25,810 nucleotides of DNA from Anaerolineae bacterium. GTDB lineage: Bacteria > Chloroflexota > Anaerolineae > S140-20. Positions 1 through 24,000 of the stretch are shown here, piece after piece. The stretch lies in assembly GCA_027021705.1 (NCBI GenBank), contig JALUTT010000024.1, positions 1-25,810 on the forward strand, in the 5' to 3' direction. The position numbers are program-made. Position 1 is the stretch's first letter. Each line of letters opens with the position of its first letter.

Positions 1-3000
1 TGCCCCACCTGGGCGTCTATCCCCGCCTTCTGACGCACCTCCCATTCCAGCCCCCCCAGGATGGCCCCCAGCCGGCCTTCCACAGCCCGCAACTCCCCGG
101 CGGTCTGTTGCCATTGAGCCCCCAGCGCCCGAAGCTGGGCCGGATCAACCCTAATGCGCACCATGGCTACCCTCCTCCCCTTTCTCGATAGCGTAGATGT
201 GCACGTCGTTTCCCATGTAGACCCGCCGAACGCCGGCACAGGTGTCAAACCAGCGCGGTTGGAGCCTGCCCCCCTTGGCCCCGATGTAGATGTGGGTGAC
301 GGATTGCTCCCGGACGAACTGCCAGAAGGTGGTGGTGCATCCTTCTATCGCCCTGGCTTGCTCGGCCACCCGCTTTACCTCCAAAATGTAGCGTTGGCCT
401 TCTGCATCTACCCTTTGCCCATAGGCAACGCCGGGGGGCAGGATGGTCGCCCGATGGCCGATCAGGGGAATCCACCACCCTCCATCGCTACCGCGATACA
501 GACCGTAGGCCCAAGGCTCGACGTTGATGAGGAATTTGGCCCCCGGCGGCACGTTCCCCGCGATCCATTCCAGAGCCTTCACGTCCTCGGCCGTCGCCAA
601 CACGGTGACCGGGTTGATGATGGAGCGGGTACCTGAGAACCCCCACGCCCCTAAAGCGGCGAGCCCGAAGCACCACAGGTACCGGGAGAGCCGAGGGGAG
701 CGGGTGATCCTGCTCACCCACCGGCGCAGCATGAACAGGCCCTCTGCCGCCAGCACGTTCTCGGCCACGAACAGGGTGATCACGAGCAGATCGGCGCGGA
801 AAGGCCGAACCTGCCACGGCCACTCGGTGCTCAGCAGGGCCAGGATCCCCACCCACACCACCAGAACCCGGCTGGGACGGCGGGCGATCAGCGATGCGCC
901 GACGGCCGGGGCCGCCAGCAGCAGGATGACCCAGTTACCGGGGTGATTCACCAAGTTCCACAGGTATTCCAGCGTCGGGAAGGCCGCCTGCCCGGTGAGC
1001 GCCCCTGCGCTCCCCCAGTGAACCCGGGCGAAGGCCGACACGTGGGGAACGACCCGGAGAAGCCAAGGAACAACCATAGCCCCCCCCAGTCCGCCCCAGG
1101 CCAGGAGTCCAAGACCCCGGTGCCACCGCCCTCTGTTCCCGCCCTCAACGGGGCCAACCAAGGCCAGCGCCAGCAGGAACCCCAGGAAATAGGCTGCTGC
1201 CAGGTAATGGACCAGCACGATCCCGCCGGTCATCAAGGCAAGTTGAAGCCCGTTTCGACGCTGATGGGGATGGCGCCAGACCGCGAGCGCCGTCGCCATC
1301 GCGATGGGGAGCAAGACCATCCCCGTCAGCAGGGTGTACCGTCCCCACGAGGCGTAGTAGGCGGGCATCTGGGAGACAAAGCCGGTCAGCACGGCCGCGG
1401 CGATGCCTACCTCGCGACGACCGCCGATCTCCGCCCCCAGGCGGTAGATGGACAGGACGACTGCCGCGTTGAGCACTTGGCCCAGGACCAGCACCGCCCG
1501 GGGCGATGGAAGGTCGGCCAACTCGGCGAAGGCGGCCGTCAACACGTGAAAACCGAAGTGGTAGTAGAACGGAACGGGCATGTAAGGCTGCCAGGTGTCG
1601 GGAAGCTGCCCCTGGTCTCGGATGATCTGGACGATCAGGGTGTGGTGCAAGGAGTCCACCCAGGCCGGCAGTGCTAGGTCTCGGACCTGGAGGAACCGCA
1701 GGGTCAGCGTGGCGACGAAGACCAGCCCCATCGCCATCACACCCGATCGGTAGCCCACCCCCTTGTGGCGCCACTGCCCGACCGGCCATCTTCTGAAGAA
1801 GGCCAGGGATCGGCCCCCAATGCCGAACCCCACGACGAGGCTCCCCAGGAGGCCGGCGACGGCCAAGTCCCTGTAGCCGATCCTGACGTGAGCGAGGGTG
1901 GCGTAGAGGGCGAGCAGGGAGATGCCGGCCACACTCAGCCCAACGCTTGTCGCCAGATCAGGCCGGTGCCTGTCGCAACGGTGGAGAGCCTCTGCGATCA
2001 CTTGACCGGGCAGCCACAGCACGGCGACGGCGGCCCCTGCGATCCGTATCCCGCTGGCCACAATCCACTATCCTCCCCAGGGGGGCGGCGGATAAGGGTA
2101 GGGTTCGGGTGTATCCGTGGGCTCCGGTGCAGGCCCCCCACCGCCGCCCCCCCCACCGCCGGGAAAGGGGTTGAACCAGAACATCCCCTCGGTCGAGGTC
2201 GCCAGGGGCCTCCCGCCCTGCACCACTGACACATTCCACCGCCATTCTCCGAACTTGTCTCCCGGCAGGCTGGCCGTCCATTCGGTGGTGGTGAGAAGAG
2301 GGCTCTGCACGCTGTAGCCGCTCTCCCGATGCCAGGCCAGCACTTGGTAGCTCTGTCCCGTGCCCAGCTTCCCTTCCCAGCGGAAGGTGATAGGATTCGA
2401 GTAGGTCTGTCCCTGCTCCGGGAACGTCGGGACCGGCGGGGCGGCCGATGATCCGACGGGAGCGGGTGTGCCTCCCGAAGCCGAGGACGGCGCCTTCGTC
2501 GTTGCCGTCGTGGCCTCCGTTGAGGCCGGCGTGCTGGTTGGCCGGCGCGTCGCCGTCGGCTGCGTCGTCGTCGGTGTCGGCGTCGCTGCCCTCCTGGTCA
2601 TCGTGACTCTGATCACCTCCACCGTCGGAGAGGATCCCGCGCCGGCCGGGACCTCAGGTGAGGCCGTCGCCACCGACGACGGCGAAGTAGGAGACGTTCC
2701 CGCCCGCCCCTTCCCCACCAGGATCCCCACCACCACCAAGGCCAGCACGATCAATCCCCCCACCGCCCACGCCCACGCCGGAACCGACAGGAATGCCGGC
2801 CAGGAGGCGATGGGACGCCCCAAGGGGCCATCCGGGGCCAGGGGGCGAGACCTCGGTCGGAGCCCCGCCGCTCCGATCGCCGTTCCGCCCGCAACCCCCA
2901 GCGCCTGGGCCATTGCCTCGGCGCTGTCGAACCGCTCCGACATCGGCAGCGCCAGCGCCTTCAACACCGCCGCTTCCGTCCGCCGGCCGATCCCCGGAAT

Positions 3001-21000: not shown

Positions 21001-24000
21001 ATGCGCTTTACGATGGGCTCAGGGTCCTCCCCCGTGTACTCGCCGTCGGTGATGTGGCAGACCAGGGGGGCCGGGCAGTGGCGCAAGTTGGGCAGCTCGT
21101 CCCGTAGGAGCTTCTCGACCTGGGCAAAGGCTCTGGCAGTATCGGTGGTGCGCAGCAGACGGAGCTCCGGCGCTCCCAGGCGGGCGACCCGATCCACCGG
21201 CTTGATCCCACCCAGCAGGTCGTACACGTGGTCGCTGTAGGCGAACAGGGCCAGGCGGTAGCGCGGTGAGATGCGTCCTCCCTTGGTCGAGCGGAAAACC
21301 ATCTGGCGCAGGGAGGCTTGGAGCGCTTCCATCACCACGTCAATGCGCCGTTTGCCCCCCAACGGCCTATTCATCGAAGCGCTCACATCCAGCAGGTAGA
21401 TGATGAGGGCCGGCGTCTTGCTGGTTGCTAGAGTCTCGTAGGCCATAGTTCTTCCCCCTTTCACATCACCGTCTCCCCCACTGCTTCAACCAGGGGCTGG
21501 ATCCACGTCGGCGTCGTCTCCAACGGTTGGACCGCGAGCGGCAGGGGGAGGGCGGTGACCCGGGTCCCTTCCAGCAGCGACGCTGCCTCCGGGACCACGG
21601 CCACCCTTCCCCCCCGCCGCTCAACCCCCTCCACCAGGTCTTCGAAACGCGGATCCGCCCGCCAGGCGGCGATGGCCGCCTCGCCACCCGGGATGATCAA
21701 CACCCCCACCGAGGGCAACGACCGTAACACCTCGCTCAACGAAGTGTCCGGCACGATGACCACCCCGTGCATCCCGCGAATCCCCCGCCGCTTTAACCCC
21801 ACCGTTGTCAGGGGTAGTCCTGCTCCCCGCAGCCCGCTGATCAGCGTTGTAACTTGGACCTCATCGAACCCATCGGCCAGAAGGAGCAGAAACCCTCTGG
21901 GACGATCTGATGCCTTCATAGGTCCCCCTCACCTTTCGCTCGACGAGATGGCAGGCCGCTTCCTCAAGCCAACGAGCCCTCTCTCGATCTCGCCCCGGCT
22001 CCCTATGCTCACCAGTGTATCACAGAAAAACTGCGAGGAACTACGGACTTGCTTCAAATTGGTGAAGTCCACTGCGAGATCACGGGAAAAACTGCGGGAA
22101 ACTGCGGAGAACTTCAGAAAACTGCGAATTCCTTCAGATACCTGCGAGGAACTTCAGAGGGCTGCGAGTTTCTTTGAACACCTGCAAAAGTCGCCAAAAA
22201 CCACGATAGGGTGCTTGACTTCTCGCTTGTGATGGCGTATACTCGGTGAGTGGGCAAGCTGCCGATAGAAGCTGCGAGGGGGGTAAATGATGCCGTCTAT
22301 GCCGGACACCTTTCCCGACCTTATCCGTGGGGCTCTGCGGCAATGGGGGGATCTCCAGCCCGATCTTACCGGCTGGAATCGCTACCTGAAGATCAGCGCC
22401 TTCGGGGCCACCGGCCCCCATCCCCCTCCGGCCATCCTGGCCCGAGCGGTCCGGGAGTGGATCTACGAGGGCCTCAAAGCGCTGGAAACCGAGGATCCTC
22501 AAGCGGCCCAACTGCTGACCTGGCGCTTCCTCGATGAAGAGAGCGTCTCTCAGGTCGCCCACAGGGCCCACCTGAGCCCTTCCCAAGTGATGCATCGGCA
22601 GCGGATGGCCATCAGAGCCCTGGCCCAGGTGATGTGGCGGGGTGAGTTGGCCCTGCGGCGGCAACGGATGGCCCACATCCAGGCTCGGCTGGAGACGCCG
22701 TACCCCTCTCACCTCTTCGGCGTGGCCGATAAACAGCATGAACTCCTTGATAGTCTCTCCGATCACCGTTCTCGTTGGGTGATCGTCCTAGACGGTATCG
22801 GCGGCATCGGCAAGACCGCGCTGGCCGACTGGGCCGTTCGCCAGGTGATCACCGCTCCCTTCTACGCGGACATCGCTTGGATCAGTGCCCGACAGGAGGT
22901 CTTCACCCTGTGGAGCGGGCTGAGCGTCCGGCCTGCCTGTCCGGCCCTCACCTTGGAGGGATTCCTGGATGCCCTGATTGCCCAACTGGATCTGTCGGAC
23001 CTGCGCCCTCTCTCTCCGACCCGCAAGCTCGACGAGGTTCGCGCTCTCCTCAAGGAGCAACCCTACCTGATCGTGGTGGACAACCTGGAAACGGTTGCCG
23101 ATTATCAGGCCCTTGTACCCCACTTGCTCGACATGGCGACTCCCACCCGCTTTCTCCTTACCAGCCGGTACAGCCTGCGGGCCTATCCCGGCGTTTACAG
23201 CATCACCCTTCAGGAGCTTTCCTGGCCCGACAGCCTGGAGTTGATGCGCCACGAGGCCCACGAACGCGGCATCCATCTGCTGGGCGAAGCCTCGGAGGAA
23301 GCCCTCTCCCAAATCTACCGGGTCGTTGGAGGCAACCCTCTGGCCCTCAAACTGGTCGTCGGCCAGATCGGCGTCTTCGCCCTGCCAACCATCCTGGAGA
23401 ACTTGCGTCAAGCCCGAGGACGTCGCATTGAGGAGATCTACCGCTACATCTACTGGCGAAGCTGGTATGCTCTCAGCGACGCGGCCCGCCGGGTCCTGTT
23501 GAGCATGCCCCTGGTCTCCAGCCACGGAGGGACGCTGGAGCAGATCGCCGCCAGCAGCGAACTGCCCATCTCCCAGGTTGTGGATGCCATCGAGGAGCTG
23601 GTGCGCCTCTCGCTGGTTCTCCAAGTGGGCGATCTTCGGGAGCAGCGCTACACCATCCATCAGCTCACCGAGACCTTCCTGATGCGCGAGGTGGTGAAAT
23701 GGCAACAGGCATCGTCGGACCCAGCTCTCACCCCACCGTCTGGCGCACGTACTTCTGCCGGGCCGTCGTAAACAACGTCCAGTACTGGCTTGACCGGATC
23801 CAGCACCGATCCTACCCTGTCCCGGATCGGGAGTGGCCCAACGTCCAGAAAGCCGTCGCCGCTGCCCTGGAGATCGAAGAGGCCTGGCCCACCGGAGTCA
23901 GGCTGGCCCTGGCCCTCCGCGCCGAGGTGAAGCTGCGACAGGGCGCCTTGTGGACTACCTGGCGCGGCTATCTAGAGCGCATTGTGGAACGCGGAAGCCA

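Follow-up and report, generated by a model that had tools for sequence, protein, structure and literature searches.

Among described secretion machineries, the T7SSc, the type VIIc secretion system that Garrett, Higginson and Palmer (2024) delineated, comes closest to the locus analyzed here; in the accessible parts of that study, it is reported in Bacillota only. According to the same parts, EssB of the T7SSb and TscD of the T7SSc are kinase-fold membrane subunits that adjoin the ATPase, the catalytically dead kinase fold of the T7SSb serves as a structural partner of EssC, and phospho-regulation has been proposed for these T7SS subtypes (Garrett et al., 2024). We analyzed a window of 25,810 nucleotides (the whole stretch of DNA studied) from the genome of an uncultured Anaerolineae bacterium; all features discussed below are encoded on its (-) strand.

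Gene Content of the Locus

A preliminary description had recognized a type VII secretion cluster in this Chloroflexota genome, and its EssC, WXG100 and YukD proteins bear this out. The genes named there are present, but the subtype outlined in the accessible literature and the vWA, PP2C and EspG-like members had been overlooked; with the vWA and PP2C genes added, the cluster reaches position 21464 instead of 21446. Judged by its proteins and by the accessible part of the published definition, the locus is very probably a T7SSc of Chloroflexota. Of the seven Tsc components listed there, six have clear counterparts in Paenibacillus T7SSc loci or clear Pfam matches, and the match for TscG is weak. 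Comparison of the proteins of the window with three Paenibacillus T7SSc loci by tblastn gave identities of 42% for EssC, 53% for the WXG100 protein TscA, 50-51% for the kinase-like domain of TscD (residues 1-297; a membrane kinase in all three loci), 60% for the vWA protein and 38-39% for PP2C. In the Paenibacillus locus L069, Pfam revealed an FHA-less EssC, a 276-aa gene, WXG100, vWA and PP2C proteins, and a weak Pkinase match on a 725-aa protein.

Both WXG100 proteins of the preliminary description carry the WxG motif. The TscA/EsxA-type protein (10322-10597; 91 aa; PF06013, E 2.4e-23; TIGR03930; WEG45) would be the substrate or cap protein of the system and is 68-71% identical to its counterparts in L027, L029 and L030, and the second, WXG100-like protein is a 194-aa ORF (18471-19055; PF06013, E 8.4e-7, 29.6 bits; WEG51). 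The YukD/EsaB ubiquitin-like protein, corresponding to TscB (17034-17528), was likewise recovered (PF08817, E 1.1e-8, score 36.1 bits, cut-off 27); its ORF extends to 17678, with M51 as the likely start. Its acidic tail terminates in DEGYVWRQLD, that of the L030 homologue in GFVWKRVDE, and the tail is repeated as DEGYIWKRID at the C-terminus of a 230-aa protein with four TM segments (10850-11542). The 5.19-Mb genome contains this DEGY motif at only two sites, which both lie inside this locus. The YukD homologue of L034 appears by eye to possess an FHA-like domain; no FHA domain able to read a phospho-mark was found on the contig studied here.

Two WD40 proteins are encoded in the cluster, as had been noted. 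One is a membrane-anchored seven-blade protein (11617-12924; WD40, E 2.7e-97) whose ORF extends to 13464, with a likely start near 12924 and TM segments at ORF residues 172-329; its gene contains a 126-bp repeat array of 5.8 copies with 87% matches. The other is the TscD homologue (13125-17009; 1294 aa), whose N-terminal domain (residues 1-297) is an atypical, Bud32/RIO-like kinase domain. The top match of its profile in the PDB is TP53RK/Bud32 (E 2.8e-4), K54, H154, D156 and N161 are invariant, and the domain shares 55-67% identity with its counterpart in the Chloroflexota loci L016, L027, L029 and L030. It is followed by TPR, a hydrophobic span near residues 640-660 (by eye), a P/T-rich stretch and WD40 repeats (13 by Pfam, about 13-14 in all; a repeat array of 12.5 copies); the outer part corresponds to two WD40 propellers.

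The TscE homologue is a TerY-type vWA protein of 257 aa (20691-21464; VWA_2, E 6.6e-5; PADLOC TerY, E 1.4e-18) with 77% identity to L029 and 68% to L030. The PP2C/PPM-like TscF homologue (19114-20907; 46% identical to L030) scores just below the cut-off of 24 (PP2C_2, E 6e-5, 23.1 bits); it consists of a phosphatase domain (residues ~134-400), one TM helix (412-441) and a P/T-rich tail, and an overlap of the ORF with the vWA gene leaves its true start uncertain. A 271-aa protein (17546-18361) in the position of an EspG-like chaperone is probably TscG: it weakly matches the 276-aa gene directly 3' of EssC (24% identity, E 3e-5) in L069 only, and is 34% identical to genes in L019 and L034.

Directly downstream of EssC, the ORF at 3792-5105 (P0122; 437 aa) codes for a candidate secreted effector with a WXG/LXG- or EspC-like helical N-terminus followed by a papain-like cysteine peptidase (Peptidase_C39_2, E 3e-14; C70, E 4e-10). 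Immediately behind EssC, the loci L027, L028, L029 and L030 encode conserved versions of the first ~100 residues of this protein (36-61%), with no match for the C-terminal part at those positions. The C70/C39-type peptidase of the preliminary description thus exists, but in this ORF and not at 4330-5112, which translates into G/R/P-rich text of a wrong frame. A second, receptor-type Hanks kinase follows (2068-3714; 548 aa; Pkinase, E 1e-43) with one TM helix (ORF residues 506-540), a P/T/S-rich stretch and a small outer domain. The membrane Ser/Thr kinase reported earlier is thereby upheld, with its start most likely at 3714 and not at 4314: Pkinase matches the full ORF (2068-4314) with E 1.9e-43, yet the upstream 200 codons look wrong-frame and overlap the effector gene. 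Finally, the 636-aa protein at 151-2061 does possess 10 hydrophobic segments, but it is probably no secretion component because none of 16 related loci contains a relative. It has no Pfam or NCBIfam match and resembles DUF6541 clusters (Atlas features 0.99; structure TM 0.86-0.87) and RgtA/ArnT/STT3-like, GT-C glycosyltransferase-like proteins.

A Kinase Domain Fused to the Motor ATPase

The TscC/EssC-type ATPase and its fused kinase are encoded by a single ORF of 1705 aa (5120-10237, including the stop). PF01580 matches in three stretches (E 1.5e-87), and the EssC model TIGR03928 covers residues 5-1330 with a score of 1266 bits (cut-off 778). The ATPase part (residues 1-1345; 6203-10237) comprises two TM helices (36-61 and 67-87), a DUF-like domain and the P-loop domains D1, D2 and D3 with Walker A motifs at 488, 833 and 1122; a canonical Walker B (LILIADE) is present in D1 only, and neither the Pfam scan nor a dedicated look revealed an FHA domain. 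We thus re-derived from the sequence the helices, three FtsK/SpoIIIE domains and length initially described. The source gene call begins 70 codons later (1635 aa), but the long start is supported by a ribosome site (GGGAGGG) that lies 6 nt ahead of the ATG at 10237, by the homologous Met at which P0005 starts, and by the EssC model alignment from residue 5 onward.

An R/P/E-rich linker (residues 1346-1436; 5930-6202), delimited by composition and by alignment with P0005 and P0006, leads to a predicted cytoplasmic PknB/StkP-like Hanks Ser/Thr kinase domain (residues 1437-1705; 5123-5929). Pkinase matches residues 1439-1689 (E 9.9e-45), the kinase part of NF033483 matches with 358 bits, and StkP and PknB align with the domain end to end (E 4e-61 to 1e-58). 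All catalytic motifs initially listed are kept (GRGGMAIV1446, AIK1466, HRDVKPSN1558, DFG1578, SPE1607); the label "active" attached to them extrapolates from these motifs, which make it likely that the kinase is catalytically competent.

The preliminary description regarded this domain as the separate kinase subunit of other systems, moved into the translocase. Such a relocation of an EssB/TscD equivalent, by which one polypeptide would do two jobs, has some appeal, since both subunits adjoin the ATPase in the accessible account of T7SSb and T7SSc, and since the fusion of interacting partners is a classic Rosetta-stone event. We nevertheless consider it very improbable: a full TscD homologue with its invariant residues is still encoded at 13125-17009, it shares 31% identity with the fused domain over 62 residues only, and no Pfam scan of the locus gave a YukC/EssB family match. 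In quick tree searches with SH-aLRT as sole support, the three fused kinase domains cluster (87) and nest in a group of 13 rows (96) made up of stand-alone Chloroflexota kinases; by sequence, the fused domain groups with such ordinary Hanks kinases, remote from TscD. It is 40-42% identical to the neighboring receptor-type kinase. Because the TscD, vWA and PP2C components remain, we view the fused kinase as an addition, not as a relocated subunit.

Integrity of the Fusion

The genome is a metagenome bin (183 contigs, 4.5% contamination), a single contig spanning the whole junction was found only in run X1, possibly the source run, and the unfused relatives P0136, P0123 and P0135 end exactly where the linker begins. 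A merger of EssC with an adjacent kinase gene by sequencing or assembly error, or a chimeric contig, would fit these facts, yet its chance appears negligible. Contigs from four runs of three studies tile the junction, and those of X2, X3 and X4 overlap at their ends across the linker and show no competing joint. The frame is kept without a stop across 91 linker codons, and P0005 and P0006 show the same architecture, each with its own linker sequence. Strain variants also follow the pattern of selection on the fused frame: 11 are synonymous and 2 non-synonymous in the kinase, which is under purifying selection, and both variants in the linker are non-synonymous. The fusion is almost certainly real and conserved.

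Distribution of Kinase-ATPase Fusions

The fusion is rare in databases, as first reported: among the best 120 matches to residues 1200-1705, PF01580 and a kinase occur together in three, namely P0002 (the query's own cluster), P0005 (1634 aa; five member sequences, two contigs, three sources) and P0006 (a partial NCBI record). The latter two are 67% and 66% identical overall to EssC-kinase, and each retains the G-loop, A[IV]K, HRDVKPSN, DFG and SPE; their differing linkers are shorter (~35 residues, against 91 here). In three further clusters (P0151, P0240, P0241), an intact Hanks kinase precedes the ATPase (48-58% identical to this EssC) as the N-terminal part of the protein, so that the wiring of kinase to ATPase arose at least twice. 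FHA-EssC forms (P0211, P0213, P0218) are among the matches of the same ATPase search. The fusion was absent from those genomes of the class whose matches could be judged by open-frame length, EssC was absent from the three other genomes of the order, and we found no published description of an EssC-kinase fusion.

Among close relatives, the fusion is patchy. In a larger ATPase tree, also a quick search, the three fused forms share an eight-row clade (95) with the unfused P0123, P0124, P0136 and P0152, and the fused P0006 is sister (100) to the unfused P0136. As fused and unfused forms intermix, the domain is dispensable or easily lost. This dispensability would suit a scaffold, a pseudokinase-like module docking TscB, TscE or substrates without phosphorylation, as would the dead kinase fold partnering EssC in the accessible account of T7SSb, and the faster evolution of this contig's copy (branch length 0.42 against 0.09-0.13 for the other two fused forms). 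However, dead kinases have typically lost at least one of three residues (VAIK Lys, HRD Asp, DFG Asp), and no catalytic residue is missing from any of the three C-terminal or three N-terminal fusions, whose kinases share 39-69% identity with this domain; we thus regard a mere scaffold as unlikely.

Proposed Function

The explanation that we favor, and deem fairly probable overall, is a T7SSc with an added PknB-like kinase that is fused to the motor and acts in cis on the machine. A canonical Hanks kinase from the ordinary Chloroflexota pool would have been attached to the C-terminal end of the motor by a flexible linker rich in R, P and E. On the cytoplasmic side, it would adjoin D3, the end of the domain stack where substrates dock in the T7SS studied so far. 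Oligomerization of EssC would bring the kinase domains together for trans-autophosphorylation, and the kinase may then phosphorylate Ser/Thr residues on machine parts or docked substrates, with TscF reversing the reaction. It could form a second phospho-switch or short-circuit that of TscD, TscE and TscF, and the neighboring receptor kinase may pass an outside signal into it. That the fused kinase regulates secretion in cis is, as a separate claim drawn from the sequence, a tentative proposal.

Its position directly behind D3 and the reach of the linker would also allow the kinase to phosphorylate docked cargo, thereby marking or gating exported proteins. The N-terminal fusions place the kinase near the membrane, far from D3; a target in the machine fits better, and we consider cargo phosphorylation quite unlikely. 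A kinase welded to the export motor suggests the motor itself as a direct target of phosphorylation.

Comparison with Known Type VII Secretion Systems

The component set of L069 and of the present locus agrees with the T7SSc list as far as it is accessible (Garrett et al., 2024). Unlike the usual T7SSc portrayed there, the system studied here has a PknB-like kinase added to its motor and keeps TscD separately. The T7SSc with its TscA-TscG set is thus known from the accessible literature, and the kinase-fused motor in Chloroflexota appears to be new.

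An EssC-Type ATPase With a C-Terminal Hanks-Type Kinase Domain

The open reading frame covering positions 5120-10237 on the minus strand is free of stop codons and encodes an EssC protein of 1705 residues. The NCBIfam EssC model (TIGR03928) matches residues 5-1330 of this protein with 1266 bits against a cut-off of 778, and the EccCa and EccCb models recognize it as well. Pfam analysis revealed three FtsK/SpoIIIE (PF01580) stretches, referred to here as D1 to D3, and a protein kinase domain at residues 1439-1689 (E 9.9e-45). Two hydrophobic helices at the N-terminus would place the stack of ATPase domains and the kinase together in the cytoplasm. 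An FHA domain was found neither in EssC nor elsewhere on contig C24; the rest of the genome encodes eight. The source annotation starts the gene 70 codons further downstream, a call that would remove the first transmembrane (TM) helix. Like the preliminary description, we consider the long start to be the right one, since a GGGAGGG ribosome-binding site is found 6 nt upstream of it, the EssC model matches from residue 5 onward, and P0005, a protein cluster with the same type of fusion, starts with the homologous methionine.

The positions assigned previously to the motifs of this protein are all correct (Walker A at residues 488, 833, and 1122; AIK1466, HRDVKPSN1558, DFG1578, and SPE1607). In addition, the kinase domain possesses a glycine loop (GRGGMAIV at residue 1446), the alpha-C glutamate in REARA, and Thr/Ser residues in the activation segment, and the Hanks-kinase motif set (Gly-rich loop, VAIK lysine, alpha-C Glu, HRD, DFG, and APE/SPE) is complete. 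Over its whole length, the domain can be aligned with the kinase structures solved for StkP, PknB, PknE, and PknA (E 4e-61 to 3e-51; E 4e-61 to 1e-58 for StkP and PknB), and a linker of 91 residues, rich in R, P, and E, connects it to D3. Judged by its motifs, the fused kinase is intact-looking and its phosphotransfer activity putative.

When residues 1200-1705 of EssC were used in a database search, three of the 120 best matches joined PF01580 with a kinase domain, namely the protein's own cluster and the clusters P0005 and P0006, while the remaining 117 were kinases without an FtsK domain. The claimed rarity of the fusion, with just two such clusters beyond its own among the best 120 matches, is thus upheld. 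P0005 (1634 aa) comprises five member sequences and two contigs from three sources, and P0006 (982 aa) is partial; across their lengths, they share 67 and 66% identity with EssC, respectively. Both keep all kinase motifs yet have their own, much shorter linkers, which argues against an assembly error as the origin of the fusion. The stretch is also present in public contigs of four sequencing runs (X1 to X4) from three studies, three of the runs being labelled hydrothermal vent metagenome. A single contig spanning all of it occurs only in X1, a possible source of the assembly. The contigs of X2 to X4 break within the linker, near 6053-6060 and 6180-6200, and hence tile the junction rather than bridge it; a competing joint was absent from them. 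In these public contigs, 11 of the 13 strain differences in the kinase domain are synonymous, which points to purifying selection on the kinase frame; in the linker, both of the two differences are non-synonymous. The overall observation of an EssC protein with a C-terminal Hanks kinase in a type VII locus is therefore confirmed from sequence.

The Gene Cluster Resembles T7SSc of Bacillota

Clusters of WXG100 and FtsK genes in Chloroflexi have been mentioned in older papers. Among type VII secretion systems (T7SS), the subtype T7SSc is defined by seven components, TscA to TscG (Garrett, Higginson and Palmer, microLife 2024; PMC11217815). In this publication, Paenibacillus, Bacillus anthracis, and Brevibacillus brevis are named as hosts, T7SSc is placed in Bacillota only, and Chloroflexi are never mentioned. 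TscA is described there as a WXG100 protein, TscB as YukD-like, TscC as an EssC protein that lacks FHA domains and is closer to EccC, TscD as a membrane protein that bears, in the cytoplasm, a kinase domain with a conserved active site, TscE as a vWA protein, TscF as a PPM phosphatase predicted to be cytoplasmic, and TscG as EspG-like.

We compared the proteins encoded in the window with three Paenibacillus loci, one of which (L069) was analyzed with Pfam and contains the published T7SSc gene set. The FHA-less EssC/TscC protein, with its three PF01580 stretches and two TM helices, is 42% identical to its Paenibacillus counterpart, and the WXG100 protein TscA (PF06013, E 2.4e-23; WEG45) is 53% identical. 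The kinase domain of TscD, residues 1-297 of a 1294-aa WD40 protein (13125-17009, minus strand), shares 50-51% identity with a 725-aa kinase-like protein of Paenibacillus. For the vWA protein TscE (20691-21464), 60% identity was found; its VWA_2 match (E 6.6e-5) falls under the Pfam cut-off, and it matches the TerY model of PADLOC with E 1.4e-18. The PP2C-like protein TscF (19114-20907) is 38-39% identical over residues 140-366, and its PP2C_2 match, at 23.1 bits, narrowly misses the cut-off of 24, which the matching Paenibacillus gene passed at 28.1 bits. The YukD protein TscB (17034-17678) was recognized by PF08817 (36.1 bits versus a cut-off of 27) and has homologues in the related loci L030, L031, L032, and L034. 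A 271-aa protein at the TscG position matched the gene directly after TscC in L069 only (24%, E 3e-5) and is 34% identical to genes in the related loci L019 and L034. The Paenibacillus identities, the gene set of L069, and the YukD protein together argue that a T7SSc is encoded in the window, in which six components have clear sequence matches and TscG a weak one. The proposed type VII secretion cluster in a Chloroflexota genome is thereby borne out, and its component content assigns it to T7SSc.

Among the matches listed in a D3 scan of genome contigs, the Paenibacillus loci were the closest outside the Chloroflexota, and in an ATPase tree their sequences form the sister group of the Chloroflexota ones (SH-aLRT 92 for the latter); all trees were quick searches with SH-aLRT support only. 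A compact T7SSc gene order is found in the metagenome locus L030: PP2C, YukD, vWA, WXG100, EssC, effector, TscD.

The Fused Kinase as an Addition to TscD

The preliminary description took the fused domain for the usual kinase subunit turned into part of the translocase. This view is not supported, since TscD is still encoded and the fused domain is unlike it (31% identity over 62 residues only). The TscD domain is 55-67% identical in four related Chloroflexota loci; K54, H154, D156, and N161 are invariant in the five sequences, the catalytic loop reads HCDLSxxN, and DxE is present instead of DFG. Bud32/TP53RK was the best match of a profile of this domain (E 2.8e-4), followed by PknB. Both kinase-type domains of the locus thus retain catalytic residues. 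The TM span of TscD, near residues 640-660, was recognized by eye and is below the hydropathy threshold used.

The three C-terminally fused kinase domains group together in a kinase-domain tree (SH-aLRT 87), inside a group of stand-alone Chloroflexota kinases (13 rows; 96). This group includes kinases from two genomes belonging to the same family (61-64% identity) and kinase-STAND-TPR proteins (62-67%). This grouping, the retention of TscD, and the weak likeness to it indicate that the fused domain is an ordinary Hanks kinase, recruited locally and added to a system retaining its own kinase. Hence, the T7SS cluster and the EssC-kinase fusion of the earlier interpretation stand, while the relocated kinase subunit does not.

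Distribution and Recurrence of EssC-Kinase Fusions

The order comprises four genomes, and EssC is absent from the other three. Among 401 sampled genomes of the class, 55 contain an EssC-like match with E <= 1e-40. Among the class matches below the size of the multi-FtsK frames (about 2900-3000 aa), those extending through D3 lie in open frames of 1334-1470 aa, which leaves no room for a kinase. One open frame, of 1723 aa, is longer, its extra part being an N-terminal FkbM methyltransferase. In locus L026 (G390:C274, 1032-6086; cluster P0210), an EssC protein of the same clade and an N-terminal FkbM-type methyltransferase (PF05050, E 6.8e-18) are encoded by one 1684-aa ORF. Giant multi-FtsK-domain proteins are predicted from open frames of about 2835-3022 aa, each matching the EssC ATPase domains at several separate places, in 14 class genomes (G210, G380, G185, G354, G367, G335, G215, G156, G044, G320, G342, G213, G308, and G157). 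The nearest genome copy of EssC, in G223 (63% identity), ends right after D3. Just upstream of it (L027, G223:C21, 5935-6309), a 124-aa ORF with a weak match to a kinase N-lobe (E 6e-4) may be a kinase remnant or a chance similarity.

A metagenome scan with a D3 alignment of three sequences yielded, among the matches listed, unfused relatives only (L028 to L034 by tblastn), and no kinase was found by tblastn after D3 in L028 or L029. In the D3 scan of genome contigs, the matches listed comprised one unfused Chloroflexota locus, the Paenibacillus loci, and more distant ones. When D3 alone was searched, four of the 120 EssC relatives listed bore a kinase, three of them as C-terminal fusions and P0151 with the kinase at its N-terminus. 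N-terminal fusions are represented by three clusters (P0151, P0240, and P0241), whose ATPases are 48-58% identical to that of the window and each of which keeps VA[IL/V]K, HRDVKPxN, DFG, and SPE. Since both types of fusion exist, Hanks kinases have been joined to the EssC-type ATPase at least twice, once per end.

The single clean clade of fused ATPases seen in a first small tree (96) dissolved on adding 20 more relatives. In the larger tree, an 8-row clade (95) unites the three C-terminal fusions with the unfused P0123, P0124, P0136, and P0152 and with P0230, and the fused P0006 is sister (100) to the unfused P0136. Such a pattern suggests that the kinase domain is easily gained or lost. On the same type of ATPase, P0230 (1717 aa) carries an N-terminal ADP-ribosylglycohydrolase (PF03747) and P0249 (1490 aa) an N-terminal YukD domain (PF08817). 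In its kinase, FHA, PF03747, and PF08817 forms, the EssC-type ATPase has acquired regulatory domains at its ends. Our literature searches gave no account of a fusion between EssC and a kinase; accessions of this kind might appear in the supplementary material of the 2024 T7SSc paper. By its component content, the system belongs to T7SSc, in a phylum for which the defining paper leaves this subtype unreported, and its motor is fused with a putative kinase.

A Candidate Effector and the Genetic Neighborhood

A peptidase gene had been noted next to essC. A peptidase is indeed encoded there, but the ORF first tested (4330-5112) is G/R/P-rich wrong-frame text. The candidate effector is encoded at 3792-5105 on the minus strand (437 aa) and combines an N-terminal helical WXG/EspC-like domain, weakly matched by EspC (E 1.5e-3) and WXG100 (E 0.038), with a C-terminal papain-like peptidase (Peptidase_C39_2, E 3e-14; C70, E 4e-10). 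Its first approximately 100 residues recur directly after EssC in L027, L028, L029, and L030 (36-61%), and its C-terminal part is unmatched in these four loci; a conserved head after EssC with an unmatched tail is the pattern of polymorphic T7SS effectors. In L030, the ORF with the effector head (11089-12399) also bears an N-terminal Peptidase_M23 domain (E 9.4e-19), reflecting either an unusual arrangement or two genes in one frame. The receptor-type membrane kinase beside the effector gene most likely begins at nt 3714 (minus strand, 548 aa) and comprises a kinase domain, a single TM helix, a stretch rich in P, T, and S, and a small domain on the outside. Both Hanks kinases strongly matched PD-T4-6 models of PADLOC, which we take to reflect the general similarity among kinases.

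The window corresponds to the entire contig C24 (25,810 bp). The genome bin containing C24 has a size of 5.19 Mb in 183 contigs (94.9% complete, 4.5% contaminated) and encodes one copy of EssC and about 19 other kinase matches. The GC content of the window is 60-73%, and all plausible genes between 151 and about 21,900 are on the minus strand. Beyond the cluster, a DJ-1/PfpI-like protein (21461-21919, minus strand), an NB-ARC STAND NTPase that includes sigma-70 region-4/HTH-like parts and has no PADLOC match (22287-23771, plus strand), and a TPR protein (23699-24916, plus strand) are encoded. The 636-aa protein with 10 TM helices is similar to DUF6541/GT-C glycosyltransferases, with a feature score of 0.99 and a structure TM of 0.86-0.87, and a counterpart is absent from 16 related loci; on these grounds, a role as EccD, EsaA, or another channel was rejected, and the protein is not counted among the secretion components.

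The WD40 blades at 11632-12455 and 13140-14710 correspond to tandem repeats of a 126-bp unit (5.8 copies at the first place and 12.5 at the second, with 83-87% matches), whose consensus is nearly identical between the two membrane-protein genes. This suggests that the repeats were recently amplified or exchanged between the two genes. TscB and the 4-TM protein of 230 aa have near-identical C-termini, DEGYVWRQLD (17034-17072, minus strand) and DEGYIWKRID (10850-10882, minus strand), each directly before the stop codon. A six-frame scan detected this DEGY-type C-terminal pattern at only these two places in the 5.19-Mb genome, and across all fetched loci the strict pattern matched only the window's own pieces; by a looser reading, the TscB homologue of L030 ends in GFVWKRVDE. 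The common C-terminus may be a shared docking peptide.

Proposed Function and Comparison With Known Systems

We infer that cis-regulation is most likely the role of the fused kinase, which would hang from D3 by a flexible tether. PknB-type kinases trans-autophosphorylate. Assembly of the EssC oligomer could concentrate the kinase domains and so lead to trans-autophosphorylation; the activated kinases would then phosphorylate parts of the machine or docked substrates, and the PP2C protein TscF would undo this phosphorylation. The N-terminal fusions point to a target in the machine rather than to cargo at D3. In L034 (10733 onwards), the C-terminal region of the YukD homologue (209-aa frame) reads, by eye, like an FHA domain, and FHA-EssC forms are common in the same listing of D3 relatives; both suggest that reading of phospho-threonine close to the motor recurs among these systems.

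Many of the T7SS subtypes c-j, whose definition dates from 2024, encode kinases, phosphatases, and FHA proteins. A far-reaching reading, which we put forward as a rather improbable one, would hold that the motor of a T7SSc subset is a signaling enzyme: oligomerization of TscC would activate its own kinase, which would phosphorylate cargo or core subunits and form an export gate reset by TscF; motor phosphorylation would be a general control in the kinase- and phosphatase-bearing subtypes c-j, and TscD, TscE, and TscF would be a recruited TerY-P-type switch. The general principle within this reading derives from kinases fused independently to either end of the ATPase. These natural kinase-motor fusions, C- and N-terminal and at least two in number, provide genomic evidence for phospho-signaling on the motor complex itself, and the fusion names a concrete protein pair for tests of T7SS phospho-control. 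As the hosts are uncultured, the immediate value lies in hypotheses for tractable T7SSc systems of Paenibacillus or Bacillus.

Compared with the T7SSc of Garrett et al., the locus shares an FHA-less EssC, a single core WXG100 protein, a YukD-like protein, a membrane kinase whose active-site residues are conserved, a vWA protein, a PPM/PP2C protein, and, by a weak match, a protein in the EspG-like position. Its host, however, is a member of the Chloroflexota, and its TscC has an extra Hanks kinase. The outer part of TscD forms about 14 WD40 blades here and is helical there, and TscF, predicted to be cytoplasmic in the described systems, possesses a TM helix here together with a P/T-rich tail on the outside. 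Beyond the described gene set, the locus encodes a receptor kinase, another WD40 membrane protein, a 4-TM protein, and another WXG100 protein. The extension of T7SSc from Bacillota to Chloroflexota, with the full set bar the weakly matched TscG, bears on the age and mobility of the subtype.

The TerY-P triad consists of a TerY vWA protein, a PP2C phosphatase, and a Ser/Thr kinase with a zinc ribbon (PMC10542128, citing Anantharaman et al. 2012); the C-terminus of this kinase typically bears the zinc ribbon or an OB fold. The trio of TscE, TscF, and TscD looks like such a vWA/PP2C/kinase switch: the vWA protein matches TerY, TscD weakly matches the triad kinase model STK_OB (PADLOC, E 3e-5), and the PP2C gene is adjacent, TscF itself having no PADLOC match. 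In contrast to TerY-P, the trio is found inside a secretion locus and not in a tellurite-resistance or restriction context, and TscD possesses TPR, a TM span, and WD40 repeats where the TerY-P kinase has its zinc ribbon. TscD of L030 (12463-13704) ends in a double zinc ribbon, which TscD of the window lacks. The link of TscD, TscE, and TscF with TerY-P, drawn here, is not made in PMC11217815, where TerY is mentioned zero times.

With the PknB/StkP family, the fused kinase shares end-to-end alignment and all motifs, but it has neither a TM helix of its own nor a PASTA sensor and is tethered to a secretion ATPase. T7SSb reportedly possesses an FHA-bearing EssC together with the pseudokinase EssB/YukC; Pfam scans of our locus, up to E 1, gave no match to the YukC/EssB family. 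In both systems, a kinase-fold module and phospho-threonine-type modules are in physical association with the cytoplasmic side of the motor ATPase. The kinase fold of T7SSb belongs to a separate membrane protein that is catalytically dead, and FHA domains are found on its ATPase, whereas here an FHA-less ATPase itself bears a kinase with intact motifs.
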